Program-made: the position numbers and the translations under genes
From: Pseudomonadota bacterium
Lineage (GTDB): Bacteria > UBA10199 > 2-02-FULL-44-16 > JAAZCA01
NCBI GenBank assembly: GCA_043798915.1
Contig: JAZDOG010000020.1
Coordinates: 7,281-71,280, forward strand
Direction: 5' to 3'
DNA length: 64,000 nucleotides
Shown here: positions 8,805 to 63,105 of the stretch, piece after piece
How positions within the stretch are numbered: the first letter of the stretch is position 1
How the letters are laid out: every line of letters begins with the position of its first letter
Notes under the pieces: generated by a model
What the model was told of the DNA's origin: nothing
The model's input: only the letters and a program-made list of their open reading frames with translations
The model's database searches: none

Positions 8805-8893
8805 GCCATGCCCTTTGATGCGGTATCTAAGCTCAATTGAACCGCCGTGCATGCAAACATATTCCGGCGGGCAGTGCAACGGGACTTTGATGG

Positions 8894-9069
8894 TTACTAA
8901 GGAGAGCACATTATACCTCGCATCTTGCGGCCGCCAATGGCCTGCGACTGCGTCAGATTTCGCAAAAAGTGCTCAACGTAGCTTTGGCTACGCCTCCGCG
9001 CTTTTTGCTCATCTTCCTTGTCTCGGCTCATTGTCGTTGCAATCTGCGAGGTATAATGTGCTCTCCTTA
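8894..9069. mobile_element. MITE-like element: 29-bp perfect terminal inverted repeats (TTACTAAGGAGAGCACATTATACCTCGCA ... TGCGAGGTATAATGTGCTCTCCTTAGTAA) around a ~118-bp core
   Basis: Seen directly in sequence; lies in the divergent promoter region between the gene ending at 8804 (-) and the gene starting at 9118 (+). Explains the spurious mirrored ORFs 8722..9084(+) and 9009..9311(-), which both read 'KESTLYLA'. No transposase. Coordinates +/-2. Confidence 0.5.
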
Positions 9070-34870: not shown

Positions 34871-36295
34871 GTGTTGATGTGCTCAGCTGATGGTGAAACA
34901 GGAACGAGGAAGAGCTTCATCGCTGCGACCATAAAGTTTTTTTCGTCATGGCGTGGAATGCATTTTTTTATCTTGGCATTTGTTATGGCGGTTGCCTTTT
35001 CTTTTATTTTTCCGCAAAAAATTGAATATGATTCCACGCAGTATGAGCATCTTGGATGGAACATTTCCCAGGGAAACGGTTTGTCAGATGCCTCGGCAGC
35101 GCCTTTTGTGCCGACCTCAGGCCGCGAGCCGGTCTATCCGCTCTTTATCAGTTTGTTTTATCTTTTTTTTGGAAGACATCCGGAAATTGTGCTGGTAGCC
35201 CAGTCGCTGTTGCATGCAACCACTGCTCTTTTGATCTACCGGCTGGCCTGTCGATGGTTTTCCTTAAGCGTGGCCGGTCTGGCCGGCTTTCTGACCGCTG
35301 TGGATCCAACCCTTTATGGTTTTTGCAGCTACTTGCTGACAGAACCCCTGGCTCTCTTTTTGCTGGCCTCGTTCGTCTATTTGGCGGTTTTCGTGCGAGA
35401 GCGGAATGGTCTGGCTTTCTCCTTGGCGGGGGGGGCACTGCTCGGCGCTTTGGCGCTTTGTCGTGCGGTGTTTATGTTTTTGCCGGTTGTTTTTTTTGTG
35501 TTTATGGTGTTTTCGCGTTTTCCATCAAAACTTGGAAAAAGGATCGTTTATGGGATGATTCTGATCCTTGTTTTTATGAGTGTTCTTTCGCCATGGTTGT
35601 ATAGGAATAAAAAGGCATTCGGTGTTGCTTTTATCACCGCGCGTTCAGGCGAGATGCTTTTGTGGAAGGCGTTGAGGACAGAGCACTCCCCAAGGGAAAT
35701 GCTCGTGGATCTTGTTTATGGAACATCGGATACTCTGGGCCGAAAATTATTTCCCGATGATTATTCGAGGATGAATATCAGCGGGGAACATGGTCCGGAA
35801 AACGTATATCCCATTGGCGTAGAGAGATATATGCGGTATCTTGCCGATGGGTACTCTGAGCTTGAGGCCGATCGCCTGCTTCGAATCGATGCGATTAGGA
35901 TAATTATAAAACGCCCCTTTAAATACATCGCTCAGTGTTTTGTCGACGCGTGGAAGCTCTCTTTTTTTGAGATAGTTCCATTTGCCTACTCAACACGGTT
36001 CAATCAGTTGATGCAAAGGGGAGATTGTCTGTTAGGCTTGGGGACCGCCCTGAGGATACTGCTTCGTTATGTGTATTCATGGCTGATAATTTTATTGGCT
36101 GTCAAAGGATTTCTGGAAGTCCAAAAAGAATGGAGACGAAAATGTCTGTTGCTGGTACCAATTATTTATACGATAGGGACGGCCATTCCATTTGATGTTA
36201 GCGGGAGATACGTCTATCCTGCATTGCCATTTATCCTGATTTTAGCATCGGTATCGGTTGTCAATTTCATTGAAAGAAAACAGCCGTCTTTGTAA
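34871..36295 (+). CDS. GT-C superfamily membrane glycosyltransferase (ArnT/PMT_2-like); paralog of 42463..43839
   Basis: 'YDSTQYEHLGWNISQGNGLS...REPVYPLFIS' closely parallels 'YDAAQYEHLGWNLSQGNGLS...REPLYPFFIS' in the paralog; multiple TM helices. Confidence 0.55.
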   Translation: MLMCSADGETGTRKSFIAATIKFFSSWRGMHFFILAFVMAVAFSFIFPQKIEYDSTQYEHLGWNISQGNGLSDASAAPFVPTSGREPVYPLFISLFYLFFGRHPEIVLVAQSLLHATTALLIYRLACRWFSLSVAGLAGFLTAVDPTLYGFCSYLLTEPLALFLLASFVYLAVFVRERNGLAFSLAGGALLGALALCRAVFMFLPVVFFVFMVFSRFPSKLGKRIVYGMILILVFMSVLSPWLYRNKKAFGVAFITARSGEMLLWKALRTEHSPREMLVDLVYGTSDTLGRKLFPDDYSRMNISGEHGPENVYPIGVERYMRYLADGYSELEADRLLRIDAIRIIIKRPFKYIAQCFVDAWKLSFFEIVPFAYSTRFNQLMQRGDCLLGLGTALRILLRYVYSWLIILLAVKGFLEVQKEWRRKCLLLVPIIYTIGTAIPFDVSGRYVYPALPFILILASVSVVNFIERKQPSL

Positions 36296-36313
36296 AACCG
36301 CATTTCATGAGAG

Positions 36314-37225
36314 TCAGGGTTTCTCCGATTTTGTGAGCATGGACAGCGTTCTATCGGGGAGCGCGACGCCATTCTGTTCAGCCAAAAACCCCATTGCCAT
36401 TATTATAGAGACGGCAATCAAAAAAAAGCTCGCCAGCGATATTGCGAAACGAGCCTGGGCCGAATATATGGCCAACAGGATCATGAATGCGCCGGTTATT
36501 GACATTGCAGTGATCAAGGCGAGAAATGCCTTGATCGGATTATAGAGCAGGATTGCCCTCACTATAAGCTGGAGCGTCCACAGCACGTCCCTTTTGAATT
36601 TAATCTTGCTTTTGCCCTTTCTTGCGAAATACGTTATCGGCGTGTGCGCGACGAATCTGCCGGAGAGGAGGCTGACCAAGGTGATCGTTGTCGTGATGGA
36701 GAAGCCGCCACACAGCACTCGCCAGAAGTCGGTGAAGATATCCTTTCTTATTACGCGCATGCCGCTGTTTACATCCGGTATGGAGCGGCCGGTCGCAGAT
36801 TCGCACAGCATGCGGAAGAATATACGAGCTATTCGCAGGATTATGTTTCCATGATATATCTTTCCTTGTCTGGCCCCGACCAGCATGTCGAGATTCCTGT
36901 CGGCCAGGCTCTGCACCATTTCTGGCAAAACCTCCACCGGGTATGTTCCATCGGCATCTATCATGGCGATGATTTCGTGTTTTGCGTTTGCGACTCCTGT
37001 CTTTACGGAATTGCCGTACCCTATGTTGCAGGGGTGTCTGAAGACTCTCGCCCCGGCCTCCTCCGACATTCGGGCTGTTTCATCGGCGGAGCCGTCGTCC
37101 ACGACGATGAGCTCAGCCTCGATATCGGAGGAATCAAATGCCAGTTTGAGTTTTTCAAGCATTTCAGCAATATGCGGGCCCTCATTGAGGGCCGGGATAA
37201 CAACGGAGACTCCTAACCGTTTCAT
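36314..37225 (-). CDS. GT2 polyprenyl-phosphate sugar synthase (Dpm1/ArnC/GtrB-like) with C-terminal TM anchor
   Basis: 'VVIPALNEGPHI', 'VVDDGSADETA', 'DADGTYP' DXD region; two C-terminal TM helices typical of ArnC/GtrB. Confidence 0.8.
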   Translation of the reverse strand: MKRLGVSVVIPALNEGPHIAEMLEKLKLAFDSSDIEAELIVVDDGSADETARMSEEAGARVFRHPCNIGYGNSVKTGVANAKHEIIAMIDADGTYPVEVLPEMVQSLADRNLDMLVGARQGKIYHGNIILRIARIFFRMLCESATGRSIPDVNSGMRVIRKDIFTDFWRVLCGGFSITTTITLVSLLSGRFVAHTPITYFARKGKSKIKFKRDVLWTLQLIVRAILLYNPIKAFLALITAMSITGAFMILLAIYSAQARFAISLASFFLIAVSIIMAMGFLAEQNGVALPDRTLSMLTKSEKP

Positions 37226-37236
37226 AATTTTACCCC

Positions 37237-38457
37237 CTACTTAAGATTGCGCATGTGCTGAGCCAGCTCAACAGACGGCAACAGCTCCTCAGCGATATGT
37301 TTTCCGATAAGCTCCGATGTTTCTTCAGTGGGATGGCTGGTGTCATCGAAAAAAATGTCGCGCGGACGCATTATTTTTTTGCCCCATTTTTCCAGATCGA
37401 TCACCTGCAATCCACGCTGCTTTGCCAATCGGCGCAGGTCGAAGTTATACTGTTCAATAAGCTTTGCAAGGACATAGGGATTGTTTGTATAGGGCGGCAG
37501 AAAGCCGACCTTAAAGGCCCTTTCGCTCGGCTCTTCCTCCATGATATAAAGGCTTGGTATTGTGATTATGACTACCTTGCTTCCCACCGATTGCATTTCA
37601 TCTATGATCTTTGCAATATCCTTCAAAAATTTTGGGTTGTATCCTTCTGCGCTGTGAACCTGCGGTGCATTTTTGTCGGGAGCCATTGCCCTCCTGAGCC
37701 ATCCCTGCGATTCAATTTTCCGCATGCCTATAACCAGATTGGCAAGTCTCATGAAAGCGCTTCTCGCAAGTCGGAAACTCGCTAAATAGCTTTCAATTCC
37801 TCCAGCCGGACCTTCCTCCCATATGGAATTCCATCCAAGATATATTGTTGTGATTTCAGGTCGAAGCTCCTTCATTTTTTCTATGTTGAGGAGGACGTCC
37901 TTTGGTCGATAGCCTTCAACACCGGCATTGACGACCTCAATCCTTTTACCCCGGTTGCGAAGTTCGCGTTCCAACGCTCTCGGGTAGGAATATTTGTCAA
38001 ATAACGACCGAAATGTGCATGAATCGCCGATAGTCAGAATCCTCGGTTGGCTGTGCGTCTTGTCTATCTCGGGTCCTTTGAATCCATCGCTGTTTATCTG
38101 ATATATGATTTCATCCTGATTGAAATTTAATTGAGAGGCTCGGTCGGTTAAATGTTTGACGGCCAAAAATCGCCCTGAATATTCTTTTGCGTTGACTGTT
38201 TGTTCCAATGTTCTCGAGATTCCAGGCCTCAAAACCCAGCTGAGCGATGGATGTTTCGGGTCTGGCATCTCATATTCGTTCAAATCTGGTGTTGCAGCGA
38301 GGTTCAAAAAAGTTTTGATTTCGTCACGAAAGACGAATGCGAGGCGCGAACCGCCTTCTATAATTATTCCTGTCAATACAATCACAAGGAAGATAAACAA
38401 GAACCGAACGTCGTGCGAGCGTCTTTTAGCGTTCTTTATTTTCCCTCCGTCAGCCAT
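37237..38457 (-). CDS. SGNH/GDSL-family hydrolase or acyltransferase with N-terminal TM anchor; paralog of 61923..63098
   Basis: 'RILTIGDSCTFRS' GDS(x) nucleophile block, 'VNAGVEGY' block II. Paralog shares RILTIGDSCTFGS, NAGVEGY, TIY(L/I)GWN. Confidence 0.65.
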   Translation of the reverse strand: MADGGKIKNAKRRSHDVRFLFIFLVIVLTGIIIEGGSRLAFVFRDEIKTFLNLAATPDLNEYEMPDPKHPSLSWVLRPGISRTLEQTVNAKEYSGRFLAVKHLTDRASQLNFNQDEIIYQINSDGFKGPEIDKTHSQPRILTIGDSCTFRSLFDKYSYPRALERELRNRGKRIEVVNAGVEGYRPKDVLLNIEKMKELRPEITTIYLGWNSIWEEGPAGGIESYLASFRLARSAFMRLANLVIGMRKIESQGWLRRAMAPDKNAPQVHSAEGYNPKFLKDIAKIIDEMQSVGSKVVIITIPSLYIMEEEPSERAFKVGFLPPYTNNPYVLAKLIEQYNFDLRRLAKQRGLQVIDLEKWGKKIMRPRDIFFDDTSHPTEETSELIGKHIAEELLPSVELAQHMRNLK

Positions 38458-38517
38458 GTTGTTGTCAGGGGCTGGTCTTCGCGAGATAATTTTATATTGA
38501 GCACATGCTTTAAAGCG

Positions 38518-39303
38518 TCAGGCCTTTTCGGCCAGGACTGTCCATGACATGTCATTGCAATGAACCAGTCTGATGTTTTTCAAGGGCAGCCCTTCCGTGA
38601 GGCCGAGGACCTCGTCCCTCTTCCAGTAGTGGCAAATGCTTGGAATGAGCTGGTCAAAAACAATTCCCTCCACATTTCTGAAGGGCATCTGTTGTAAATG
38701 GCGGAAGTATTCTTCTTTATTGGGAAATAACAAATATAGCTTCAATATGCAGGCAAGCATTTTTGCGAGCAGGTGATTCAACATGGGCGGCATTCGCGAC
38801 GTAAGGTGAATTCTCAATGGGTCAAAAAGCTTCACGTACGTTTCATTTCCTTCATAGGCATACACGTATACGATTAAAGCGCCTCCTCTTTTCAAAGCGC
38901 GCACTAGGTTCTCCAGCGCCCGGCGAGGGTCCGCCAGGCAATGGACCACGCCGATTGAAAAGACTATGTCGAACCTGTCCTGGAAATCGATGTCATAGAT
39001 CGATCGAAAGGCAACCTCGCAGTTGGAAAAGCCTTCCAGATTGCTTTTTGCCGCGGCCACCGTCCTGTGATCGTGATCGAACGCATAGCCGGAAGCAGCC
39101 CCGGCTTTGAGGGCAAAGAAGCTGTTGCGCCCGTTCCCGCAGCCGGCATCCATAAAGCTCTTTCCCTTGAATATGGAGGGGTAGAGGCCTCCGGACCAGC
39201 GCCGGAACTGCTCTTCATTGATCGGCATGATTTCTCTAAATAAATTCCACTCGTAGCCGAACTGTTTTTCGGTTCCAATCGGATGGTCGCTGTTTTTTTT
39301 CAT
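38518..39303 (-). CDS. Class I SAM-dependent methyltransferase
   Basis: Motif I 'FMDAGCGNGRNS'; 'FDIVFSIGVVHCL', 'ALKRGGALIVYVY'. Confidence 0.7.
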   Translation of the reverse strand: MKKNSDHPIGTEKQFGYEWNLFREIMPINEEQFRRWSGGLYPSIFKGKSFMDAGCGNGRNSFFALKAGAASGYAFDHDHRTVAAAKSNLEGFSNCEVAFRSIYDIDFQDRFDIVFSIGVVHCLADPRRALENLVRALKRGGALIVYVYAYEGNETYVKLFDPLRIHLTSRMPPMLNHLLAKMLACILKLYLLFPNKEEYFRHLQQMPFRNVEGIVFDQLIPSICHYWKRDEVLGLTEGLPLKNIRLVHCNDMSWTVLAEKA

Positions 39304-39444
39304 GTTTCTCGCTTTTTTCGGTTTCTTTATGCAAAATCTAGAGTAATACTGCTGAATTGATACAGCTCATCCGTAAATGTAGCAAAAACTCAGTGTTATG
39401 AAAAGAACTTTATAATATAAAACAGAACATTATCAAGCACACCC

Positions 39445-40431
39445 ATGCCAGCGGCAAAAAAAATATTGATAAACGGCGGCGTCGGCTTCATCGGGTATCA
39501 CCTCTCCAAAAAGCTCCTGGACGATGGCCACGATGTCGTCATCTACGATGCCTTTATAAATTATATCCCGGCGGATAAAAGCACATATGCGCTTTATCTG
39601 CATGCTCGTCTGGCCGATCTGGACAAGCGCGTTGAGATCATCAGGGGCGATATAAAAGATGTCGATCATCTGATAAAGACCATCAAAGAACACAGGCCGG
39701 AGGTTTTGATAAATCTGGCTGCCGTTCCGATCGCCACGGCGTCCAATGAAATGCCCTGGGAGCTGATCGAGGTGAATCTCGAGGGCACCATTGCAATTTT
39801 GGACGCTATCCGGTCGACCGATTCGGTGAGGCGTTTCGTCTATACCTCCTCGAGCTTTGTCTATGGCAATTTTAAAAAGGAACCGGCGGATGAAAACCAC
39901 ATCACGGAACCGATAGATATTTACGGTGGCACAAAGCTGGCGGGGGAGATCCTGACAAAAACCATAGGAAAAAAATTTGGCATCGAATATACAATCATCA
40001 GGCCGTCTGCGGTGTACGGGCCGACCGACGCCAACCGGCGGGTGACGCAAATATTTGTGGAGAATGCCCTGAGCGGCAAACCCCTGATTTTGCACGACGG
40101 CGGTTCGGGCAGGCTGGATTTCTCCTGTGTGATGGATGTGGCGGACGGGTTTGCCCTGGCGGCCCTTTCTCCAAAGGCCAGAAACGAGACATTCAACATC
40201 ACCTGTGGCGAGGGCCGCAGCATGAGGAGCTTCGCCGAAATTTTGCAAAGGCTGGTCCCTGGCGTAAAAATTATCGAGCGGCCTTCCGATGACATCAGGC
40301 CGGAACGAGGGGCCCTGGATATCTCCAAGGCCAGAAGATTGTTGGGGTACAATCCCAAATATCCGCTCGAAAAGGGAATGGAAGAATATGTCAGATATGT
40401 GAAGGATTCCGGCATACTGTCAAAATTATGA
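39445..40431 (+). CDS. NAD-dependent epimerase/dehydratase (extended SDR) acting on a nucleotide sugar
   Basis: N-terminal 'ILINGGVGFIGYHL' GxxGxxG; catalytic 'YGGTK' (YxxxK); 328 aa. Confidence 0.85.
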   Translation: MPAAKKILINGGVGFIGYHLSKKLLDDGHDVVIYDAFINYIPADKSTYALYLHARLADLDKRVEIIRGDIKDVDHLIKTIKEHRPEVLINLAAVPIATASNEMPWELIEVNLEGTIAILDAIRSTDSVRRFVYTSSSFVYGNFKKEPADENHITEPIDIYGGTKLAGEILTKTIGKKFGIEYTIIRPSAVYGPTDANRRVTQIFVENALSGKPLILHDGGSGRLDFSCVMDVADGFALAALSPKARNETFNITCGEGRSMRSFAEILQRLVPGVKIIERPSDDIRPERGALDISKARRLLGYNPKYPLEKGMEEYVRYVKDSGILSKL

Positions 40432-41537
40432 TCCCATTATCCGTCATAGACGTAGGGGACGAGGAGCTGAGGGCCGTAAAAGAGGTGCTCGATTCAGGCT
40501 GGTTGACCGAGGGCGTCAAAAACAGGGAATTTGAAGAACGATTCGCCGAATATATAGGCGTCAAAAAGGCGGTCGCCCTGAATTCCTGCACTTCGGCACT
40601 TTTCCTGGCTGTCAAAGCCCTGAATATCACAGGGGAAGTCATTTTGCCCAGCTTCACATTTGTCGCCTCCGCCAACGCAGTGGTCACGGCTGGGGCCATG
40701 CCGGTTTTTGCCGACGTGAATTACGAGACGTGCAATATCGACCCACACGACATAGAGAAAAAAATCACCAAAAGGACGCAAGCGATCATGCCGGTCCATT
40801 TTGGCGGTCTCCCGGCCGAGATGGAAGCGATCGTCGGGATAGCCCGGAAACATAATTTGCGCATCATCGAGGATTCCGCTGAGACTATCGGCGGTGAATA
40901 CGGCGGAAAAAAAACCGGCAGCTATGACATAGGTTGCTTCTCTTTCTTTCCAACCAAAAGCATGACCACTGGAGAGGGGGGCATGCTGACCACCGGCGAC
41001 GCCGATCTCTCGGAGAAGATAAAAACACTGGCAGGTCATGGTGTTTCAAAAGGCGATCATAAAAACAAAAAAGGGGAAAAGCCGTGGTCCAGGGAGGCTG
41101 TTCTTGCGGGCTACAATTTCCGGATGAGCGATATCCTCGCCGCCATAGGTGTCGAGCAGCTCAAAAAAATTGAAAAAATGAACAGCCTGAGGAGACAGCA
41201 TGCAGGATATTTGACTGCTGGCCTTGCCGGGCTGGGCATCGATCTGCCGGTGGAGAGCGCCGGCTGCAGGCACGTCTATCAGATGTACACTGTTAAAACG
41301 GGCAGAGAAAGAGACCGGGTTGTTTTGAGGTTGAGGGAAATGGGCGTGGGCGCGTCCGTTCATTTTGATCCGCCGGCTCACCTGCAGCCGTATTACATGG
41401 ATAACTTCGGATGCAGGAGGGGCGACCTGCCGGCAACCGAGCGATTGGCGGACTCTATATTGACCCTGCCGATGTATCCGCAGATGAAAAGGCCGGATCT
41501 CGATTTTATAATCTCCGCCATGAAGGAGGTCCTGTGA
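40428..41537 (+). CDS. DegT/DnrJ/EryC1/StrS-family PLP-dependent sugar aminotransferase (ArnB/Per-like)
   Basis: 'DSGWLTEG', 'ALNSCTSAL', 'FSFFPTKSMTTGEGGM' (Lys in the FxxK motif); 4-nt overlap with the upstream epimerase. Confidence 0.85.
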   Translation: MIPLSVIDVGDEELRAVKEVLDSGWLTEGVKNREFEERFAEYIGVKKAVALNSCTSALFLAVKALNITGEVILPSFTFVASANAVVTAGAMPVFADVNYETCNIDPHDIEKKITKRTQAIMPVHFGGLPAEMEAIVGIARKHNLRIIEDSAETIGGEYGGKKTGSYDIGCFSFFPTKSMTTGEGGMLTTGDADLSEKIKTLAGHGVSKGDHKNKKGEKPWSREAVLAGYNFRMSDILAAIGVEQLKKIEKMNSLRRQHAGYLTAGLAGLGIDLPVESAGCRHVYQMYTVKTGRERDRVVLRLREMGVGASVHFDPPAHLQPYYMDNFGCRRGDLPATERLADSILTLPMYPQMKRPDLDFIISAMKEVL

Positions 41538-41539
41538 TT

Positions 41540-42448
41540 GTGGACGACCATCGGAAATTCAACATGCCTTATGTTGTAGTCTTTGTGCCCGCGCACAACG
41601 AGGAGGGCTCGATCGGTCGGGTGATCGAGGCGATCGATAAGAGTTACCGCGGCGATGCCCCCCGCGACTATGTTTTGGATATCGTGGTGGTGGACGACGG
41701 ATCCAGCGATGAGACTGCACGGATAGCCAGGCAGATGAAGGTCAAGAGGGTCATCAGCCATCCGTACAATAGGGGTCTGGGGGCGGCCACAAGGACCGGG
41801 ATGCAGGTCGCCTATGAGATGGAAGCGGATGTCGCCGTCAAGATAGACGCCGACTTTCAACACGATCCTGAGGATATCGAGCGCGTTATCCGTCCGATTC
41901 TTGAGGACAGGGCTGACTGCGTGTTCGGCTCAAGATTTCTCGGGGGCCTTCAATACAAGATGCCATTGTACCGCTCTCTGGGGAATAAATTTTTCGGCTG
42001 GATGACGGGCACGATCATCAAGCAAAAGGTCACGGACGGGCAGACCGGCCTGATGGCATTCAACAGGAGATATCTTTCGAGATTCACAATTTTAAGGGAT
42101 TACAACGAAACCCAGCAGCTGATCATAGATTCCTGGGGGAAGGGCATGAGGGTCATAGAGGTCTCGGTGCTGTTTCACAAGCGCGTTTCCGGACAATCAT
42201 TTATCTCCTGGAAATATCCCCTTGAAGTCATCCCTTCGATTCTAAGGGCCTGCGCGCATGCAAACCCTTTAAGGGTATTCCTGACTCTGGGGCTTGCGGT
42301 GACGCTGACCGGAGTGCTCATCGCTGCCGCGTGGATCTCCGGCTTGACTCGGTTTCCTGGAGATGCCGCCGCCTCGATACTGATCGTCGTGGGGGCGCAG
42401 ATAATCCTTTTTGGTTTTCTTGCCGATATCATCAAATTCAATCGCTAG
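41540..42448 (+). CDS. GT2 polyprenyl-phosphate aminosugar/sugar synthase (ArnC/GtrB-like) with C-terminal TM helices
   Basis: GTG start after a GAAGGAGG RBS; 'VVFVPAHNEEGSI', 'VVVDDGSSDETA', 'DADFQHDP'; C-terminal hydrophobic helices. Confidence 0.75.
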   Translation: MDDHRKFNMPYVVVFVPAHNEEGSIGRVIEAIDKSYRGDAPRDYVLDIVVVDDGSSDETARIARQMKVKRVISHPYNRGLGAATRTGMQVAYEMEADVAVKIDADFQHDPEDIERVIRPILEDRADCVFGSRFLGGLQYKMPLYRSLGNKFFGWMTGTIIKQKVTDGQTGLMAFNRRYLSRFTILRDYNETQQLIIDSWGKGMRVIEVSVLFHKRVSGQSFISWKYPLEVIPSILRACAHANPLRVFLTLGLAVTLTGVLIAAAWISGLTRFPGDAAASILIVVGAQIILFGFLADIIKFNR

Positions 42449-42462
42449 ATGGGAAAGGCGGA

Positions 42463-43839
42463 ATGAACATGAAGTTTTTTTCAACAAGACAGGGGATGAT
42501 CGTTTTTGTTCTGGGGTTCCTCATGGTGATGGTGATGGCCTTTTGCTTCAGGTGGGCGCCCATTTACGATGCTGCGCAATACGAACATCTCGGCTGGAAC
42601 CTCTCGCAGGGGAACGGGCTTTCAAATTCCATCGCGCCGCCCTTTGTTCTGACGGCCGATCGCGAGCCTCTGTACCCGTTTTTTATCAGCATCATTTACA
42701 GAATATTCGGGCGCCATTACGGGTGTGTCTATATTGCGCAGGGTTTCCTCGTCGCCCTCTCCTCCTTGTTGACATTCAAGCTGGCCGGGCGCTTTTTTTG
42801 CCAGCGCATAGCCTTCCTGGCCGGCATCCTTGTGGCGGCAGACCCCACCATCTCGGGTTTTGCCGGCCAGTTCTGGACAGAGTCGCTTGCTCTTTTTCTC
42901 CTGATCTCCTTCATCTATATGATGGCTGTCTTCAAGGAAGAGCGTCCATTTCTCTTTGCGCTATCAGGAGGCGCGCTGATTGGCCTTCTGACTCTTTGCC
43001 GCGCCGTGTTTATGCTCATGCCTCTGGCCGTTGCGGCGTTGTTGATCTTTTCAAAACATCAGCCGTTGAAAAAGCGGCTGCTTCAGGTTGTCGCGCTGAT
43101 GGCCGCCTTCACAATTATCGTGGGGCCCTGGATATATCGAAACAAAAAGGAATTCAATGTTCCGTCCATCACGACTCGCTCTGGCCATCTGCTTCTGTGG
43201 CGGGCCTTGAGGACAGAGTACACGCCGAAGGATATGCTGATACATCTTTCATATGGTGCCTCCGACACTCTGGGACGCAGGCTTTTTCCCGGTGAATATT
43301 CACGGATGTCGGTGAGGGGTGTCTGGGGGCCTGAAAATATATATGAGAAGGGCGCAAGGATGTATCTTGACTATCTTGCCAGGGGGTATTCCGAATTTGA
43401 AGCGGATCGCATGCTTCAACTCGAAGCCGTCAATATTATCAAAAAGCACCCGGCCATGTATGTGCTTCAGTCCTTTCTGGAATTGTGGAAGCTTTCTTTC
43501 TTTGAAGTCGTCCCTTTTGCATATTCAGACAAGTACAAACAGCTGATGCAGGGCGGGGCAACATTTTATGTCATAGGAAAAATGCTTCGCGTGGGGCTTC
43601 GTTATTATTACTCATGGCTGATCATCGCCCTGGCTGCTGTGGGTTTAATCAGAGGCCACCGCAGTCTGGATGGCAGGAAATCGGTATTTCTGCTGCCGAT
43701 AGTTTATGTGATTATCACCGCCATGCCTTTAAATGCCGGCCCGAGATACCTGTGTCCGGCCCTGCCATTTATCATGATCTTTGCCGCAGCGGCGTTTTTT
43801 GATCAAGACCTGTCCGGTTTTAAGGAGCGTAGCCCGTAA
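42463..43839 (+). CDS. GT-C superfamily membrane glycosyltransferase (ArnT-like)
   Basis: ATG at 42463 (MNMKFFSTRQG...). Paralog of 34871..36295; completes an aminotransferase / GT2 / GT-C triad. Confidence 0.6.
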   Translation: MNMKFFSTRQGMIVFVLGFLMVMVMAFCFRWAPIYDAAQYEHLGWNLSQGNGLSNSIAPPFVLTADREPLYPFFISIIYRIFGRHYGCVYIAQGFLVALSSLLTFKLAGRFFCQRIAFLAGILVAADPTISGFAGQFWTESLALFLLISFIYMMAVFKEERPFLFALSGGALIGLLTLCRAVFMLMPLAVAALLIFSKHQPLKKRLLQVVALMAAFTIIVGPWIYRNKKEFNVPSITTRSGHLLLWRALRTEYTPKDMLIHLSYGASDTLGRRLFPGEYSRMSVRGVWGPENIYEKGARMYLDYLARGYSEFEADRMLQLEAVNIIKKHPAMYVLQSFLELWKLSFFEVVPFAYSDKYKQLMQGGATFYVIGKMLRVGLRYYYSWLIIALAAVGLIRGHRSLDGRKSVFLLPIVYVIITAMPLNAGPRYLCPALPFIMIFAAAAFFDQDLSGFKERSP

Positions 43840-43855
43840 GGGCTATGTCTGATTC

Positions 43856-44608
43856 ATGATATTCATAATCCTTCCCGCCTACAATGAAGAGAAACATGTT
43901 TCATCTCTGCTTCAAATGATCGACTTGAGTCTAAAGGAATACAGCCATGAATATAAGGCCATTTTAGTGGATGATGGTTCAACGGATGACACGGTCAAGA
44001 TCGCAAGATCGTTTGGGGGGCTGATGCCTGTCGCGGTCATTTCCCACGACAAAAATATGGGATTGGGTGAGGCCATCAAAACGGGTCTCGTTCATGTCGT
44101 TCAAGCGGCTGTTGACAATGATGTCATAATCACGATGGACGCGGACAACACACACGCCGCCGGCCTCATCATGCGCTTGAACCGCAATATCTGGGAGGGA
44201 TGCGATGTGGTGATTGCCTCTCGCTATGTAAAGGGGGCTCAGGTCATTGGGGTCCCGCTCTCAAGAGGGTTCTTGAGCCTTGGGGCGAACATTTTGTTAA
44301 GAGTCCTTTTTCATATTCGAGGGATACGGGATTACACATGTGGTTACCGTGCTTATCGGGTCTCTTTATTGAAGAAGGCGTTTGAAAAATACGGCGATAT
44401 ATTCGTATCGGAATCGGGATTTTGCTGCCAGATAGACATCCTGCTTAAATTGAGGGCATTTCAGCCTGTTATCAGCGAGGTGCCTATCATCTTAAGGTAT
44501 GACCATCGCAAGGCCATATCGAAAATGAATGTAAAACAAACGATCAAGGACACATTAAAGTTAATATCCAAACAATTCTTCAAAACCAGCCACCATTCCG
44601 ATCAATAA
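43856..44608 (+). CDS. GT2 glycosyltransferase (Dpm1-like, soluble, 250 aa)
   Basis: 'IILPAYNEEKHV', 'LVDDGSTDDT', 'DADNTH' DXD region; no TM anchor. Confidence 0.75.
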   Translation: MIFIILPAYNEEKHVSSLLQMIDLSLKEYSHEYKAILVDDGSTDDTVKIARSFGGLMPVAVISHDKNMGLGEAIKTGLVHVVQAAVDNDVIITMDADNTHAAGLIMRLNRNIWEGCDVVIASRYVKGAQVIGVPLSRGFLSLGANILLRVLFHIRGIRDYTCGYRAYRVSLLKKAFEKYGDIFVSESGFCCQIDILLKLRAFQPVISEVPIILRYDHRKAISKMNVKQTIKDTLKLISKQFFKTSHHSDQ

Positions 44609-44637
44609 AGGCTCGAAGGCGATAAAAAACGAAACAT

Positions 44638-45558
44638 ATGAATGAAAAAAATCTAAAATGTCCTGTTTGTAATTCTAAAAATATAATCATCAAATATAGA
44701 GAAGGGAAAGAAAAACCAAGCTTGGAGATAGGGTATGCCCGTGCCGGGGTAATTTCAGAATTATATAAATGCAAAGGATGCGGTGTTAAATTCACAAATG
44801 TTTTAATTAATTTTGATAAAAATATTTATGCTTCTGGCAATGATGTAATTTATAAAAGATCGGAGCGTGCCAGAAAGTTAACATTTAAAAAAGATATTGA
44901 AAACCTCTTAAAGAAATTTAGAGGCGCAAAGGGAGGTATTTTAGACGTCGGCTGCGGACCGGGCTATTTTTTAGAAATTGTTAAAGAAAAAGGATTTAAG
45001 GCCGATGGGATTGATCTTTCAACTGCAGATTGTGCCGAAGCCAATTCAAAAGGATTGAACGTTTATTGCACAGATTTCATGAATTTCTGTGAAAAGAATA
45101 AAGACAAAAAATATGATTTAATTACAATGTGGGATTTTATAGAACACGTTGAAAATCCTCAAGAGGTAATGGTTAATTGTCATAATATTCTTAATATTGA
45201 CGGCAAATTAGTAATAAGCACGCCTGACGCAGGAAGTTTATTTGCAAAAATAATGGGCAGAAGATGGTGGAATCTTCTGAGCATGCATCTATTATATTTT
45301 AATAAAAGAAGCATAAAATACCTTCTTGAAAACAATGGATTCAGGGTTTTGGATATTGGATCTTATTCCAGGATTTTAAATATCAAGCATGGTTTAAATT
45401 GGTTAAACAGATATCCTGGTTTGTTTAAAATTGCAGAGTTCTTTATAGCTTTATTGGGAATAGATAAGCTTAATCTGCCTCTTAATTTCTTTGATAGCAT
45501 GATAGTCTACGCTGAGAAGAAAGAACCGCTATCCAAGCAAGGCCATCTTGCGCTTTAA
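44638..45558 (+). CDS. Class I SAM-dependent methyltransferase with N-terminal Zn-ribbon (CPVC...CKGC); strikingly AT-rich gene
   Basis: Motif I 'ILDVGCGPGYFL'; 'YDLITMWDFIEHV', 'LNIDGKLVISTPD'. Base composition is much more AT-rich than its neighbours. Confidence 0.7.
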   Translation: MNEKNLKCPVCNSKNIIIKYREGKEKPSLEIGYARAGVISELYKCKGCGVKFTNVLINFDKNIYASGNDVIYKRSERARKLTFKKDIENLLKKFRGAKGGILDVGCGPGYFLEIVKEKGFKADGIDLSTADCAEANSKGLNVYCTDFMNFCEKNKDKKYDLITMWDFIEHVENPQEVMVNCHNILNIDGKLVISTPDAGSLFAKIMGRRWWNLLSMHLLYFNKRSIKYLLENNGFRVLDIGSYSRILNIKHGLNWLNRYPGLFKIAEFFIALLGIDKLNLPLNFFDSMIVYAEKKEPLSKQGHLAL

Positions 45559-46668
45559 TATCTTAAGGATCCTCTCGCATGCCCTTCCATCCCCAAAAGG
45601 ATTCTTGCCGGTCGTTTTCGGGGGTCTATCCAGCCACTTCATGGCCAATGCAACGATGTCATCTTTTTTCGTTCCGACGATCCGCCCCATGCCGGAGGCT
45701 GCGAGCTCCGGGCGTTCAGTCCTTTTCCTCATCACTATCACGGGCACCCCAAATGACGGCGCCTCTTCCTGTATCCCGCCTGAATCCGTGAGCACGAGAG
45801 CGGAACGCGCGAGCAGATATAGCAGCGGTTCGTATTCCAATGGTTCTACCAGATAGAGATGTTCGTGGTCAGAGAGTATCTTTCTCACAGTCCCGCGCAC
45901 ATTGGGGTTTGGATGGACGGGAAATACGCATCTGATGTCACAGCGGCTTTCTAAAAGTGAATGGATGGCATGGCAGATGGATTCCAGTTCCTTTCCAAAG
46001 CTCTCCCTCCTGTGGGCAGTTATGAGCACCAGCTTGCCGAAGGATTTTCCTGTCAGATTCAATTTGTACCTGTCCATGAAAAAATCGGTCCATTTTTTAC
46101 TTTTCTTGGTGTCTTGAAGGCGGCGATTAATATATTTCAAGGAATCGACGACTGTATTGCCTGTCACAAATATTCGCTTGGATGAAATGCCCTCGTTCAA
46201 AAGGTTCTGCTTCGCGATACTTGTCGGCGCGAAGCAGATGTCGGCCAGGCGGTCGATAAGAACTCTATTGATCTCCTCAGGAAATGGGTTGTCGAAATGG
46301 AAGGAACGCAGGCCCGCCTCCACGTGGGCGATTGGGATGCCCTTGTAGGCGGCAGCGATCGCTGTCATCACGGCTGTTGTGGTGTCGCCATGGACGATCA
46401 CTAAAGAAGGCCTGGTCTTATCCAGGAAGGGCCCTAGCTGACCGAGGGCTCGGCTTGAGAATCTGGTCAGATCTTGATCGTCCTCCATTAAGTCGAAATC
46501 GATATCAGGTTTGATCTCAAAGAGGTCGAGCACCTGATCCAGCAGATGACGATGCTGGGACGTGACGCAGACCGTAGTTAGGAATGACCTCTCCCTTTTT
46601 AATTTGAGAATCAGAGGGGCCAGCTTGATGGCCTCAGGCCTTGTGCCAAAGACGAAACATATCTTCAT
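45529..46668 (-). CDS. wecB: UDP-N-acetylglucosamine 2-epimerase (non-hydrolysing, WecB/MnaA family)
   Basis: 'MKICFVFGTRPEAIKLAPL', 'HVEAGLRS', 'DSGGIQEEAPSFGVPV' family signatures. Confidence 0.85.
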   Translation of the reverse strand: MKICFVFGTRPEAIKLAPLILKLKRERSFLTTVCVTSQHRHLLDQVLDLFEIKPDIDFDLMEDDQDLTRFSSRALGQLGPFLDKTRPSLVIVHGDTTTAVMTAIAAAYKGIPIAHVEAGLRSFHFDNPFPEEINRVLIDRLADICFAPTSIAKQNLLNEGISSKRIFVTGNTVVDSLKYINRRLQDTKKSKKWTDFFMDRYKLNLTGKSFGKLVLITAHRRESFGKELESICHAIHSLLESRCDIRCVFPVHPNPNVRGTVRKILSDHEHLYLVEPLEYEPLLYLLARSALVLTDSGGIQEEAPSFGVPVIVMRKRTERPELAASGMGRIVGTKKDDIVALAMKWLDRPPKTTGKNPFGDGRACERILKILKRKMALLG

Positions 46669-46700
46669 AGCTCAAAATCTCTTTCTAAAGGCCATCTTCA

Positions 46701-48389
46701 TTATTTATCAAGACGATATAGTTTAAAATGTGCAGTCTGCACCACAAGAGTCAAATTGAACGTCTGAAAAATCCTCTGATAGTCTGGAGCGAACTCATTA
46801 TCAAAATAGCCTGAATAACTTGACAAAAAAAGCGGTTTTTTGTCTTCGAGGAGACCGCGCACAAGCTCATCCGTTGCCAACGGGACAGCCGGGGGAAATA
46901 TTTTGCCCTTGAAGTAGAATTGCAGATCGGCATAGGCCACGTTTGGCGAGACTGCGATAAATGTCACGTTTTTGGAACGTCCCACCTGATGCGTAAATAG
47001 TATCGGTTCGAAATCAGAAATCAGGAAAGAACCATCCGGCAATTTATTCTTCATAAAGTCCAGATAATCCCGCTTGAGCGTTTCAAATGGCGGATGAGAG
47101 TATGAATAGGCGAAGGGAATGAAGGTCAGGAGACCGATAAATATTACGGCTGGCGCTTTTTTAAAAAATCGGCCTATCCCTGCTGCCGCAGACAAGATTA
47201 TGATCGGAGCGACGGGAAGCATGTAACACGTGCTTTGTGAGAAGAGAAACACATGCGGCAGGTAATATGCCGCAAAAAAAATGGCAGAAAAAAAGAAAAA
47301 AGGTCTATCCCTTCGATAAAACTGGACGAGTCCAAAGACAGCAAAGAGCCAGATGATAATTGCGAGAGCTATTTGATCGGGCCGAGCCGATAAAATAGTG
47401 GAGGGTTCCGCTCCTGTCGAGGAAATAAGGTTATATAATATATTTGAACTTGCTCCGTATGCTGGCCTGGAAGCGTAACTCAAGGAAAATGGTCTCTGGA
47501 TATTGGCCGTGAAATGTGTCCAGTAAGAATAACCAGTGAGCAACGGCGAACCGAATTCTCTCCATTGATAATAAAAGAGTCCCGCCAATGGAATAATGGC
47601 GCCTAGCAAAAGACTTGCGCTCCTTTTAAGTTTGAATTCCCGCTCGTTCTGCATCAGGAGATAAACAACCGCCGCTGGTACCGCGGCTATGGCGAGATAA
47701 CGGACGGCCGCCGCGAAACCAAGCAGGAAACCCGCGATCATCAGCTTTGCTGTGCCGGTCTTTTTATCGGCAAGCAAAAGCAATGCCCCTAAAACAAGAA
47801 ACAGCGGCGCCATCATGGGCAATATAATCCGGCTATTGGAGATATGAAGGGGTGAAAACGAAAGGAGCAGAAGAGCCAGCAAGGCAGTTTGCTCATCCGC
47901 GATTTTCCGCCCCAAGCGATATATTATGAGGAGCGAAAGAATTCCCAAAAGAAGGGGGCAAAAAACACCCGCCCCAAGATCGCTGCCAAATACGAGGTAA
48001 AAAGGCGCAAGCATCATAGAAAAACCTGGGGCCTTGCTCATCGGGTGATCTGTCTGGTTAATAGGGACGGATAAGGTGCCCGAACTTATAAGCTCTGCCG
48101 CAGGAACGGCGTAGTGAACACTGTCAAAACTTACCATCTCTTCAAATCCACGGCTAGCGGAAACGACCCTTAATAAAATCGCACTAATCAAAATGACACA
48201 ATAAAACATCTTATTGATCCTGATCGAAGAAAATTTAAAGCGATGTTTCAAGAAAAAGAAGACAGTGAAGAGCAAAGCGGCAAGGACCAACCCCTTTTCA
48301 AGCAAGCGGAGCTGATAGACAGTCCAGGGCAGGAGCTGATGGTCCAGGCTCAGATGTTTTTGAACGAAAAATTCAAGTGGATGCATCAT
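46701..48389 (-). CDS. GT-C superfamily membrane glycosyltransferase (ArnT/PMT-like), 562 aa
   Basis: Many TM helices ('LLLLSFSPLHISNSRIILPMMAP...'), C-terminal soluble domain. Start may be an internal Met (MFYCVILISAILL...). Confidence 0.5.
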   Translation of the reverse strand: MMHPLEFFVQKHLSLDHQLLPWTVYQLRLLEKGLVLAALLFTVFFFLKHRFKFSSIRINKMFYCVILISAILLRVVSASRGFEEMVSFDSVHYAVPAAELISSGTLSVPINQTDHPMSKAPGFSMMLAPFYLVFGSDLGAGVFCPLLLGILSLLIIYRLGRKIADEQTALLALLLLSFSPLHISNSRIILPMMAPLFLVLGALLLLADKKTGTAKLMIAGFLLGFAAAVRYLAIAAVPAAVVYLLMQNEREFKLKRSASLLLGAIIPLAGLFYYQWREFGSPLLTGYSYWTHFTANIQRPFSLSYASRPAYGASSNILYNLISSTGAEPSTILSARPDQIALAIIIWLFAVFGLVQFYRRDRPFFFFSAIFFAAYYLPHVFLFSQSTCYMLPVAPIIILSAAAGIGRFFKKAPAVIFIGLLTFIPFAYSYSHPPFETLKRDYLDFMKNKLPDGSFLISDFEPILFTHQVGRSKNVTFIAVSPNVAYADLQFYFKGKIFPPAVPLATDELVRGLLEDKKPLFLSSYSGYFDNEFAPDYQRIFQTFNLTLVVQTAHFKLYRLDK

Positions 48390-48485
48390 GTTAAGGGTAT
48401 CGCTAAAAACCGCATTTGCAAGGCAAAGTTTCTCCTAAGGAAATCATTGCCAAGGAGCCGCCTTTTAAGTATAAAGCCGTCGCTT

Positions 48486-49481
48486 ATGAAACGCGCCTTA
48501 ATCACAGGGATAACCGGCCAGGATGGTTCTTATCTGGCAGAGCTTCTGCTGCAGAAGGGCTATAGTGTGTACGGCGTTGTTCGGCTTTCGCGCACCTATG
48601 GTTTTGAAAACATAAAAGGAATCCTCGACCGGATCACGCTGCTTGATGCTGACCTGTTGGAGCACACATCGCTGACCGCTCTATTGGAAGATGTTGAGCC
48701 TGACGAGGTGTACAACCTGGGCTCATTGTCCTATGTGCCAACATCATGGAAGATGCCGGTATTGATGGCAGAGATAAATGCCGTTGGCGTCGGTCGCATC
48801 CTGGAAGCCATTCGGTGCGTGAATCCCAAAATAAGATTTTACCAGGCCTCCAGCAGCGAGATGTTTGGGGCTGTCAAGGAAGTTCCGCAAAACGAGGATA
48901 CGCCGTTCAATCCGGTCAACCCCTATGCGGTCGCGAAGGTCTATGGCCATCACATCACACGAATATACCGTGAGGCTTATGGTCTCAATGCCTGCAGTGG
49001 CATCCTTTTTAATCACGAATCCCCGCGCCGCGGCCTGCAGTTTGTCACCAGAAAAGTAACCAGGGGCGTCGCACAGATCAAACTCGGGCAGGCCAAGGAG
49101 ATATGCCTGGGGAATTTAGAAGCCAAGAGGGATTGGGGGTATTCCCCTGATTACGTGGAGGCGATCTGGATGATGCTGCAGCAGCGGAAACCCGACGACT
49201 ACGTCATCGCAACCGGAAAAACGCGCAGCGTCGAAGAACTGCTGGACTGTGCCTTTAGCTATATCCGCCGCCCATGGCGGGAACACGTCAGGATTGATCC
49301 AAAGATGAAAAGGCCAGTCGATGTAAATCTGCTCGTGGGCGATGCGAGCAAGGCCAAACAGCATTTAAATTGGTCGCCGAAGAAGACTTTTCAAGAGATG
49401 ATCTGGGAAATGGTAGAGGCTGACATCAGAGATCTCACCGATAATCGACAGGGTATGTCGCCCATCAGCACGGCCGGGTAA
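48486..49481 (+). CDS. gmd: GDP-mannose 4,6-dehydratase
   Basis: 'MKRALITGITGQDGSYLAELLLQKGYSVYGVVR' is the canonical Gmd N-terminus; 'YAVAKVYGHHIT' YxxxK. The upstream 81 codons of the track ORF are likely untranslated. Confidence 0.85.
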   Translation: MKRALITGITGQDGSYLAELLLQKGYSVYGVVRLSRTYGFENIKGILDRITLLDADLLEHTSLTALLEDVEPDEVYNLGSLSYVPTSWKMPVLMAEINAVGVGRILEAIRCVNPKIRFYQASSSEMFGAVKEVPQNEDTPFNPVNPYAVAKVYGHHITRIYREAYGLNACSGILFNHESPRRGLQFVTRKVTRGVAQIKLGQAKEICLGNLEAKRDWGYSPDYVEAIWMMLQQRKPDDYVIATGKTRSVEELLDCAFSYIRRPWREHVRIDPKMKRPVDVNLLVGDASKAKQHLNWSPKKTFQEMIWEMVEADIRDLTDNRQGMSPISTAG

Positions 49482-51702: not shown

Positions 51703-52017
51703 TTATCGATTGTGCTTGTTTTGCCAGCTCTTATAAAATGCGCTGCTCTCCTTTGTGATGTCGATATCGAGCAGCGAATGACAAAAGGAAACGATGCCGA
51801 GCAGTGCCGCGACAACCCACAGAATTGCCTTTGCCCAGCTCCATACGGAAAATTTGTTTCTTATGAATGTGAGGCATAGAAAGGGGATGAAGATGATGGG
51901 CAGGATGAACAGATAGGTGATTCTGAAATCGGATGGAATCTTGAACCAAAGGAGCAGCCAGGCAAAGATCAACATTGTGTTGACGGATATGTATATTGAA
52001 TCGCGATTTAATTTCAT
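51703..52017 (-). CDS. Small membrane protein (3-4 TM), hypothetical; possibly GtrA-like
   Basis: Hydrophobic segments LIFAWLLLWF, ITYLFILPIIFIPFLCL, AILWVVAALLGIVSF. Placed next to Dpm1/GT-C genes but the similarity is weak. Confidence 0.3.
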   Translation of the reverse strand: MKLNRDSIYISVNTMLIFAWLLLWFKIPSDFRITYLFILPIIFIPFLCLTFIRNKFSVWSWAKAILWVVAALLGIVSFCHSLLDIDITKESSAFYKSWQNKHNR

Positions 52018-52039
52018 AAATCTGATTTTTTCCAAGAGT

Positions 52040-52990: not shown

Positions 52991-53119
52991 GGGGAGGGAT
53001 AGATTTTTGATTGCGCTATGTCAATGACGCAGTACGGTTCGGATAATGAAAGCCCTTGAATAAATTATGGATATGCTGTATTTATGATATGCTGGATGAG
53101 TTGGAAACGGGGACATGCC

Positions 53120-58711: not shown

Positions 58712-59217
58712 AAAAGAGCGGCCGTCCGTGGATCGTCGTGGCCTGCTATGTCGCGCTGATGTATCTTGCGACGTTCATCGCGAGTGCAACCCGGCTTCTC
58801 GACGACAGGGTCAGGACGGCAAACCTTTCCATTGTTGCGTACATAGTCTTCGGGATTGCGCTGATCGCCCTGGTTGTTTTAAGGTTCGGTTTCAAAAACG
58901 CTTACGGGTGGATATACACGGGTTTTTTTGCGGCGCTCCTTGCGATGGTGGCTTTCTACCTCCCGGAGCCGAAAGACCGGCTGCATTTTCTTGAGTATTG
59001 TTTGATGTTCGTCCTGATCTATGCGGCCTTTAAAAGGAGCGTCGGAGGTCCTCTGCGCTACGCCCTGGCCCTGATCTCGATTTTTGCTCTTGGCATTTTT
59101 GACGAAACGCTGCAGTCTTCCTATCCGAACGGTTTCTTTGACTTTTCGGATGCCTTGCACGACGCATTTGCCGGCTATGTTGCGGCCGGCGCAGTCCTCA
59201 TTTGGGAAAGGCTCTGA
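58708..59217 (+). CDS. VanZ-like family membrane protein
   Basis: 4 TM helices; C-terminal 'GIFDETLQSSYPNGFFDFSDALHDAFAGYV' matches the VanZ signature. Confidence 0.6.
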   Translation: MKKSGRPWIVVACYVALMYLATFIASATRLLDDRVRTANLSIVAYIVFGIALIALVVLRFGFKNAYGWIYTGFFAALLAMVAFYLPEPKDRLHFLEYCLMFVLIYAAFKRSVGGPLRYALALISIFALGIFDETLQSSYPNGFFDFSDALHDAFAGYVAAGAVLIWERL

Positions 59218-59218
59218 C

Positions 59219-61882: not shown

Positions 61883-61922
61883 GCCAAGGATAAGCGCAAC
61901 ATGTTTCACCGGGAGGGTATCT

Positions 61923-63098: not shown

Positions 63099-63105
63099 GC
63101 GCTGC

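Follow-up and report, generated by a model that had tools for sequence, protein, structure and literature searches.

This report concerns a stretch of 64,000 nucleotides from a Pseudomonadota bacterium (contig JAZDOG010000020.1, positions 7,281 to 71,280), referred to below as the window, and in particular the interval 34871-48389 within it. This interval probably holds the decoration genes of a very large Wzx/Wzy-dependent exopolysaccharide (EPS) locus, of the type that uses lipid-phosphate-sugar donors and membrane glycosyltransferases of the GT-C fold. Scans with Pfam and NCBIfam models place a single polysaccharide locus of roughly 55 kb between ~5.4 kb and 63 kb of the window, and this locus is a Wzx/Wzy/Wza/Wzc-type EPS cluster. 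The central module of the interval encodes an extended short-chain dehydrogenase/reductase (SDR), a DegT-family sugar aminotransferase that depends on pyridoxal phosphate, a glycosyltransferase of family 2 (GT2), and a GT-C enzyme. Judged by gene order and conservation, this block is a genuine functional unit, and its first three genes are, by the same measures, orthologues of a widespread, uncharacterised cassette. Glycosyltransferase genes are named below by class and start position.

From the observed protein families, folds, and gene order, we infer the following activities. Three GT2 enzymes facing the cytoplasm would use nucleotide sugars to charge polyprenyl phosphate, each with a sugar. 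A presumed flippase would then carry the lipid-phosphate-sugars across the inner membrane, and five GT-C enzymes would transfer the sugars in the periplasm, as side branches, onto the polymer or another envelope acceptor. As there are three donors and five transferases, some donors would probably be shared between transferases. The central module would form one self-contained pathway. Its epimerase-like SDR would serve as an oxidase, perhaps a product-releasing one, to give a keto-sugar, which the DegT enzyme would aminate; GT2_41540 would put the amino sugar on the lipid carrier, and GTC_42463 would deliver it outside the cytoplasm. Alternatively, the GT2 may act first, and the SDR and DegT enzymes may tailor the lipid-linked sugar. 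Tailoring of lipid-linked donors is also known from ArnD and DprE1/E2.

The four genes of the central module are co-directional and tightly spaced. The SDR gene (39445..40431, +; PF01370, 160 bits), which encodes an epimerase-type active site, overlaps the DegT gene (40428..41537, +; PF01041, 394 bits) by 4 nt. A 2-nt gap leads to GT2_41540 (41540..42448, +; PF00535, 85 bits), and a 14-nt gap leads to GTC_42463 (42463..43839, +; PF13231, 50 bits), the candidate transferase for the cassette product. The starts 41540 and 42463 fit better than the longest-open-reading-frame (ORF) starts 41411 and 42331, as an earlier note on this DNA had it. The NCBI model of the GT2 (302 aa) corresponds to start 41540, not 41411, and homologues of the GT-C (454-464 aa) align from MNMKFF at 42463, so the ATG at 42463 is preferred over 42331. 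In the public annotation, the GT-C has 502 aa and starts at 42331, which gives an overlap of 118 nt with the GT2 gene before it. All four genes recur on a Logan contig (locus L001) with no EPS genes nearby, where the SDR, DegT, GT2, and GT-C share 69, 72, 76, and 64% identity, respectively, with those of the window.

The UDP-glucose and UDP-glucuronic acid (UDP-GlcA) 4-epimerases are characterised by the residues SSS, 4,6-dehydratases by TDE, and ArnA and UXS by TSE. The window SDR has the motif YTSSSFVYG...YGGTK, which is conserved across all orthologues examined, and this motif aligns with the SSS of UDP-glucose and UDP-GlcA 4-epimerases, which are also the closest solved structures to the SDR. 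On the question raised earlier, UDP-GlcA decarboxylase or 4-epimerase, motif and solved relatives point to the epimerase side. An ArnA-C/UXS-type decarboxylase was ruled out by the TSSS motif, the 4-epimerase relatives, and a score of 50 bits with the ArnA model against its cut-off of 777. The DegT protein forms an orthologous group of its own. Its NCBIfam matches are PseC (327 bits), ArnB (288 bits), and WecE-type enzymes (238 bits), all below cut-off, and its PDB matches are ArnB (234 bits), the Caulobacter perosamine synthase (232 bits), and QdtB (219 bits). The ArnB and perosamine synthase scores are tied; therefore, the protein is not placeable as either by score. A scan of genome contigs with DegT gave a single locus, at 41% identity and with no informative neighbours.

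Conservation of the cassette was observed in a metagenome scan with the GT2_41540 family, which gave 78 loci. The informative set comprises the 32 loci in which the GT2 orthologue has 49% identity or more and is preceded by at least 2.3 kb of sequence. DegT is present in 29 of these 32 loci, the SDR likewise in 29, and both in 27, with a strictly adjacent trio in 22; neither was found in the five loci that have distant GT2s only. The SDR orthologues (50-69% identity) and DegT orthologues (52-72%) occupy the same upstream positions, and the window SDR, DegT, and GT2_41540 match their counterparts in the same order at a median of ~58% identity. Three further neighbourhoods, L005, L007/8, and L009/10, likewise read SDR-DegT-GT2. 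The GT2_41540 family comprises 1535 homologues at E<1e-20 (clusters at 90% identity), the best 120 of them at 55-76% identity, and several of these 120 come from metagenome-assembled genomes (MAGs) named as Patescibacteria, Omnitrophica, or Deltaproteobacteria. The window module thus appears to be the local copy of a cassette that is conserved at 50-76% identity in many uncultured lineages.

Clustering of the ORFs of 29 long loci gave an extended gene order, namely SDR, DegT, GT2, B12 radical S-adenosylmethionine (SAM) enzyme, 187-aa methyltransferase, PF03706 protein, and a GT-C-like protein with 10 transmembrane (TM) helices (loci L009, L011, L012, L014, L019, L020, L023, L029, L032, L034, L035, L038, L041, L051, L053, L070, and L076). 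The B12 radical-SAM genes are found in 22 of the 29 long loci, in one to three copies. The 187-aa methyltransferase family and the PF03706 protein (LPG_synthase_TM/PplT, an MprF-like flippase domain) are each present in 13. The transferase slot is filled in 10 loci by a family of 10-TM proteins of ~570 aa without a Pfam match (fam6), which hhalign relates to the window GT-C family with 97% probability. Elsewhere, the slot holds an 8-TM protein with TPR (5 loci) or a Wzy_C protein with TPR, and a GH94-like variant also occurs. The window GT-C family itself occupies the slot in two of the 29 loci, L001 and L023, and the L023 protein is 22% identical to GTC_42463 over the full length. Given these two loci and the likeness to fam6, GTC_42463 stands in the transferase position of the cassette. 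Another window gene with a cassette counterpart encodes a small SAM methyltransferase (MT_23729; 23729..24340, +). It is orthologous to the cassette-linked methyltransferase, with 69-70% identity to the one adjoining the triad in L001 and a median of 45% identity over 11 matches to the 187-aa family.

The window differs from the extended cassette in several respects. The PplT (PF03706) gene is absent, the B12 radical-SAM genes of the window are 25-29% identical to those of the cassette and are sited elsewhere in the locus, and the window GT-C belongs to a small subfamily that is rare in the slot. An exhaustive HMMER search with a GTC_42463/34871 profile matched 29,816 cluster representatives at E<1e-3, 233 at E<1e-30, and only two at E<1e-100; the GTC_42463/34871 group is a small subfamily within a very large superfamily. 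A metagenome scan with a five-sequence GT-C alignment found nothing. Some relatives of the cassette carry GtrA-like or PplT genes.

A wider proposal, which we offer tentatively as possible and short of probable, is that the cassette represents a novel pathway distributed across phyla, from Patescibacteria-type MAGs to Proteobacteria. The full pathway would comprise the epimerase-like SDR, DegT, the polyprenyl-phosphate GT2, B12 radical-SAM enzymes, the small methyltransferase, the MprF-like PplT flippase, and a GT-C enzyme. Its product would be a lipid-linked, possibly C-/N-methylated amino sugar, perhaps tailored while on the lipid, that is exported to an envelope acceptor. In the window, the pathway would have been recruited, with a rare GT-C, as one EPS decoration module. 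A literature search found no description of the SDR-DegT-GT2 cassette; one may still exist. In the parts of the PplT preprint reached by a term search, an aminotransferase or radical SAM partner is not mentioned.

A different role for the aminotransferase was suggested by its vicinity to Gmd and ManC, and the earlier note had regarded GDP-perosamine synthesis as equally compatible with the data. DegT would then be a GDP-perosamine synthase fed by ManC and Gmd, its product would go to a cytoplasmic Leloir transferase, and the SDR and GT2 would be functionally unrelated. The locus does contain Gmd (GDP-mannose 4,6-dehydratase; 48486..49481, +; PF16363, 407 bits; TIGR01472, 393.5 bits against a cut-off of 415), the start of which was corrected from 48243 to 48486 (MKRALITG), and a ManC-like gene (52040-52990). 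No Fcl, Rmd, or other Per gene was seen in the locus, and the similar scores of DegT with perosamine synthase and ArnB also fit this explanation. The gene neighbourhood points the other way. The overlap of DegT with the SDR gene and the start of the GT2 only 2 nt later indicate translational coupling to the SDR, and Gmd lies 7 kb from DegT, past two oppositely oriented genes. Moreover, the DegT orthologues are tied to SDR and GT2 in 27 of the 32 informative loci, with a Gmd orthologue near in only one (L054) and ManC in none. Because Gmd accompanies the cassette in that one locus only, GDP-perosamine is disfavoured; we consider it quite unlikely, and the parity assumed earlier is weakened.

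The preferred reading, lipid-phosphate-sugar decoration, requires suitable GT2 synthases. Besides GT2_41540, the interval encodes GT2_36314 (36314..37225, -; PF00535, 95 bits), which is convergent with GTC_34871, and GT2_43856 (43856..44608, +; 250 aa; PF00535, 77 bits). All three had been described as enzymes of the polyprenyl-phosphate-sugar-synthase type, and their best named matches (AglJ, PpgS, dolichyl-phosphate hexose transferase, and ArnC in NCBIfam) indeed all lie in this class. These matches are under the equivalog cut-offs: the top score is 118 bits against 325 for the AglJ model, and the ArnC model gives 58-64 bits against 529. In the characterised enzymes DPMS, GtrB, and ArnC, a DAD(x)QH-type motif goes together with a pair of C-terminal TM helices. 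GT2_41540 has the motif DADFQHDP and, in a hydropathy scan, two C-terminal TM helices at ORF residues 289-341; its nearest solved relatives are the Pyrococcus DPMS (5mlz) and ArnC (9hwj/9bhc/8vxh). GT2_36314 has a DAD motif and, in the same scan, C-terminal hydrophobic helices at approximately residues 220-278. GT2_43856 matches ArnC, dolichyl-phosphate hexose transferase, AglJ, PgfS, and PpgS at 52-58 bits, far under cut-off, and short class members do exist, as the PpgS model has 226 positions. The predicted membership of GT2_36314 and GT2_41540 in the polyprenyl-phosphate glycosyltransferase class is well supported because of the motif and the C-terminal helices; that of GT2_43856, which is short and has no predicted TM helix, is weaker.

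The three GT2s might instead be ordinary Leloir transferases that extend the undecaprenyl-diphosphate repeat unit, or HexS-like glycolipid makers, with the donors of the GT-C enzymes coming from elsewhere. The distance of the NCBIfam matches from the equivalog cut-offs and the missing helix of GT2_43856 would fit this, and sets of GT2, deacetylase, and MprF-like flippase can yield glycolipids (PMC10128005), while PplT-domain genes accompany the cassette elsewhere. Yet the best named families and solved structures are exclusively polyprenyl-phosphate glycosyltransferases, and GT2_41540 shares both the motif and the paired C-terminal helices of DPMS, GtrB, and ArnC. In addition, GT-C enzymes depend on lipid-phosphate-sugar donors, and three of the GT-C genes have a GT2 gene as immediate neighbour. 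We therefore regard this explanation as highly improbable.

The gene neighbourhoods of the other two GT2s also link them to GT-C genes. GT2_36314 is co-directional with a GDSL/SGNH hydrolase or acyltransferase-like gene on its strand (37237..38457, -; PF13472, 57 bits) and a SAM-dependent methyltransferase gene (38518..39303, -; PF13847 and PF08241). Its orthologues (57-64% identity) stand beside GT-C genes in two related loci, L002 and L003. In L003, the GT2_36314 orthologue adjoins orthologues of GTC_34871, namely two tandem GT-Cs of that family. The order in L002 is GDSL, GT2_36314-like, Wzx, GTC_13562-like; here the GDSL orthologue (55% identity) adjoins the GT2, and a Wzx orthologue (46%) lies between the GT2 and the GT-C. 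GT2_43856 comes after GTC_42463, together with a SAM-dependent methyltransferase (44638..45558, +; PF13489, 97 bits), the final gene of the plus-strand run 39445-45558. Convergent with these two genes are GTC_46701 and, downstream of it, WecB (non-hydrolysing UDP-GlcNAc 2-epimerase; 45529..46668, -; PF02350, 351 bits; TIGR00236, 426 bits against a cut-off of 210).

Five GT-C membrane transferases had been proposed for the window. Four score above the Pfam gathering threshold of PMT_2 (PF13231), which is 26.1 bits: GTC_42463, GTC_34871 (34871..36295, +; 44 bits), GTC_46701 (46701..48389, -; 62 bits), which has a C-terminal soluble domain, and GTC_13562 (13562..14995, +; 60 bits). The probable fifth member, GTC_7179 (7179..8909, -), scores 19 bits, below the threshold, and two of its four homologues carry PF13231; it lies outside the interval, as does GTC_13562. 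A PDB sequence search with two of the GT-Cs gave no significant match, so fold comparison was required. The AlphaFold2 (AF2) model of GTC_42463 (pLDDT 80, pTM 0.84) matches the folds of AglB, STT3, PglB, ArnT, PMT, ALG9, and AftB. For the GTC_7179 model, the best Foldseek match is ArnT (5f15; E 1e-6, TM-score 0.51), followed by STT3, DPY19, AftA, and PglB. The folds matched by these two models are exclusively of the GT-C_A type. Together, these data indicate that the five proteins are probably GT-C-fold enzymes, four by PMT_2 score and GTC_7179 by its model. A YD..YE motif after the first TM helix is invariant in the close GTC_42463 family (D36, E41) and has a putative catalytic role.

The classification was also checked for O-antigen ligase or Wzy-type proteins, an outcome that the earlier note had named as refuting its proposal. 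A ligase or Wzy-type identity was rejected on Pfam and fold evidence, WaaL matching the GTC_42463 model only at E~1 with a probability of 0.13. The description of the five as paralogs was overstated. The one close pair is GTC_34871 and GTC_42463, with 50% identity over 459 aa; the others share no similarity at BLAST level. Profile comparison with hhalign relates GTC_46701 to the GTC_42463 family with 97% probability; the values for GTC_7179 (1.3%) and GTC_13562 (also weak) show that these two are not close relatives of that family.

The GT-C enzymes might also act on acceptors other than the polymer. They could modify lipid A or the core of the lipopolysaccharide, as ArnT-like enzymes, or glycosylate secreted or membrane proteins, as PMT-like enzymes, in a locus that merely co-locates envelope functions. 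PMT_2 spans both ArnT-like and protein O-mannosyltransferase-like (PMT-like) enzymes, ArnT is the top fold for GTC_7179, and L001 and Patescibacteria-type loci have the SDR-DegT-GT2-GT-C module without an EPS locus around it. What speaks for the polymer is gene arrangement: the five GT-C genes are interleaved with EPS genes (initiating phosphoglycosyltransferase, Wzy, Wzx, GT4s, and acyl- and methyltransferases) over 50 kb, often on the same strand and tightly spaced, and a like interleaving is seen in L002 and L003. We find these other acceptors rather unlikely.

Several observations weigh against polymer decoration by lipid-phosphate-sugars as proposed here. Every equivalog-level NCBIfam model for the GT2s, DegT, and SDR stays under its cut-off. 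GT2_43856 has no predicted TM helix in the hydropathy scan and its similarity to the class is weak, and the assignment of GTC_7179 relies on an AF2 model of moderate confidence (pLDDT 67, pTM 0.72). DegT enzymes are usually supplied by dehydratases and decarboxylases with an Asp/Glu that is missing from this SDR, which leaves the source of the keto-sugar unaccounted for. Apart from DegT, the window offers Gmd no obvious partner. The cassette also occurs away from EPS genes, in L001 and the Patescibacteria-type loci, so that the polymer as acceptor is deduced from context. Finally, no flippase of the GtrA, SMR, or PplT type was found among the small polytopic ORFs checked in the window, and the lone Wzx may be needed for the repeat unit. 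The small membrane ORFs met instead were SxtJ-like, VanZ-like, or, in one case (51703-52086), without a family.

The locus around the interval has the expected content of a Wzx/Wzy pathway, in agreement with the setting first proposed. It includes the initiating phosphoglycosyltransferase (15031-16425; TIGR03025 above cut-off), a Wzy-like protein (17811-19340), a Wzx/MOP-family flippase (28814-30277, -; PF01943 and PF13440), which is the sole flippase candidate in the window, six GT4s, Wza, and Wzc. Modification functions are represented by eight SAM methyltransferases, four radical-SAM enzymes, an acyltransferase-3, two GDSL proteins, and a carbamoyltransferase; WecB, Gmd, the ManC-like gene, and two PEP-CTERM-type ATPase-like genes complete the set. 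Gene density across 34871-48389 is high, with intergenic gaps of at most 142 bp. A promoter/terminator scan gave no signal above shuffled expectation. A literature search found no EPS locus with several GT-C genes; such a report may still exist.

Other features of the locus touch on tailoring of the polymer. The radical-SAM enzymes (two B12-binding, two SPASM) are encoded at 9995-11512, 19340-20341, 26290-27870, and 32195-33706. Their presence, together with eight SAM methyltransferases in one EPS locus, suggests an unusually heavily methylated or otherwise tailored polymer. A trio of carbamoyltransferase, GDSL protein, and SxtJ-like small membrane protein at the end of the locus (60053-63507) suggests O-carbamoylation of the polymer. 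Genes at 53084-54004, 59084-60034, 55126-55878, 12226-13398, and 53950-55080 encode two XrtA/PEP-CTERM-ATPase-like AAA_22 proteins, a pepcterm_export-like Wza, and two HD_5 (HD-GYP-like) proteins. All are under equivalog cut-offs where NCBIfam applied, and the genes seen in the window do not include an exosortase. A PqqD-like protein (2067-2618, -) and an NTP_transf_5 nucleotidyltransferase (5406-6500, +) are encoded at the upstream edge of the locus.

Further observations concern membrane proteins. The N-terminus of GTC_13562 (13562-13624), MKVFVAGGAGFIGSNLIARLL, resembles the Rossmann GxxGxxG start of an extended SDR, fused in frame before the first TM helix. The L002 orthologue is without it; the stretch may be a relic of a truncated SDR gene. 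In L001 (2491-4206, -) and L002 (5130-6845, +), the GT-C is accompanied by a 571-aa protein, the sole match of which is GINT1_N (PF24793); the window contains no homologue of it. The small ORF 51703-52086 (-), mentioned above, has three predicted TM helices and matches no Pfam family. It is flanked by the ManC-like gene and a GT4 and overlaps the annotated TTG start of the latter. It could be a small membrane partner, a flippase subunit, or spurious.

Periplasmic decoration with lipid-phosphate-sugars is one of the main origins of diversity among surface glycans and, for Arn, also of polymyxin resistance; only a handful of such systems have been characterised. With three donors and five transferases, the window suggests that several decoration modules can be stacked in one EPS cluster. 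It also suggests that an Arn-like amino-sugar module with an epimerase-like SDR and no formyl cycle exists. The MAGs named as Patescibacteria, which are among the lineages with the cassette, have small genomes. If the proposal is true, glycoengineering would gain a new lipid-linked amino-sugar donor together with a set of GT-C acceptor enzymes, and a function would be assigned to a GT2 family with 1500 or more members (E<1e-20, clustered at 90% identity).

It is established that a GT2 synthase, a flippase, and a GT-C can act together in post-polymerisation decoration (PMC11127046). GtrA/B/C of Shigella and Salmonella, and Citrobacter ORF12/14/15 with GT136, likewise place a synthase and a GT-C in or beside a Wzx/Wzy locus to make post-polymerisation side chains (PMC11127046). 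In such three-component systems, a MATE/Wzx-type donor flippase has precedent, and the L002 order of GDSL, GT2, Wzx, and GTC_13562-like gene resembles the set of synthase, MATE-type flippase, and GT-C described by Kelly et al. 2024 (PMC11127046). The same study offers a precedent for the tailoring of lipid-linked donors in the ORF13 epimerase. In contrast to these systems, the window has no dedicated small flippase, contains three synthases and five GT-Cs instead of one each, and couples one synthase to amino-sugar-forming enzymes. Its GT-Cs are of the PMT_2 type, not GtrC or GT136, families that were not directly compared.

MprF-like flippase domains beside GT2s have been noted previously (PMC5898192; bioRxiv 10.1101/2022.03.11.483950), and in C. 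difficile the HexSDF system, which consists of a GT2 (HexS), a deacetylase, and an MprF-like flippase, makes a glycolipid (PMC10128005). In the PpgS (Rv3631)/Rv3779 system, the GT2 makes polyprenyl-phosphate-(N-acetyl)galactosamine and the GT-C adds galactosamine to arabinogalactan (PMC3485146). The window module would work in a similar way to this pair, and all three window GT2s have PpgS among their best NCBIfam matches; their scores of 53-91 bits against a cut-off of 370 indicate that they are not orthologues. The PpgS system also has no DegT or SDR, as its amino sugar derives from UDP-GalNAc.

A close parallel is the Arn pathway (ArnA, ArnB, ArnC, ArnD, ArnE/F, and ArnT), which the earlier note had already invoked. 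The shared logic stands: both have an SDR, a DegT aminotransferase, a polyprenyl-phosphate-type GT2, and a GT-C transferase, the solved structures nearest to GT2_41540 include ArnC, ArnT ranks high among the fold matches of both modelled GT-Cs, and the unit recurs in L001. The ArnA-type chemistry does not. The window SDR has TSSS, not the T-S-E of ArnA, and its low ArnA score (given above) is matched by DegT at 288 bits against the ArnB cut-off of 631 and GT2_41540 at 58 bits against the ArnC cut-off of 529. A Pfam scan of the window found no formyltransferase (ArnA-N), deformylase (ArnD), or ArnE/F-type flippase, and no small polytopic ORF fits the latter. The setting is also different, as the window module is part of an EPS locus and Arn serves lipid A modification. 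On the evidence of family, motif, and gene order, the module is one that would work like Arn but is not Arn.

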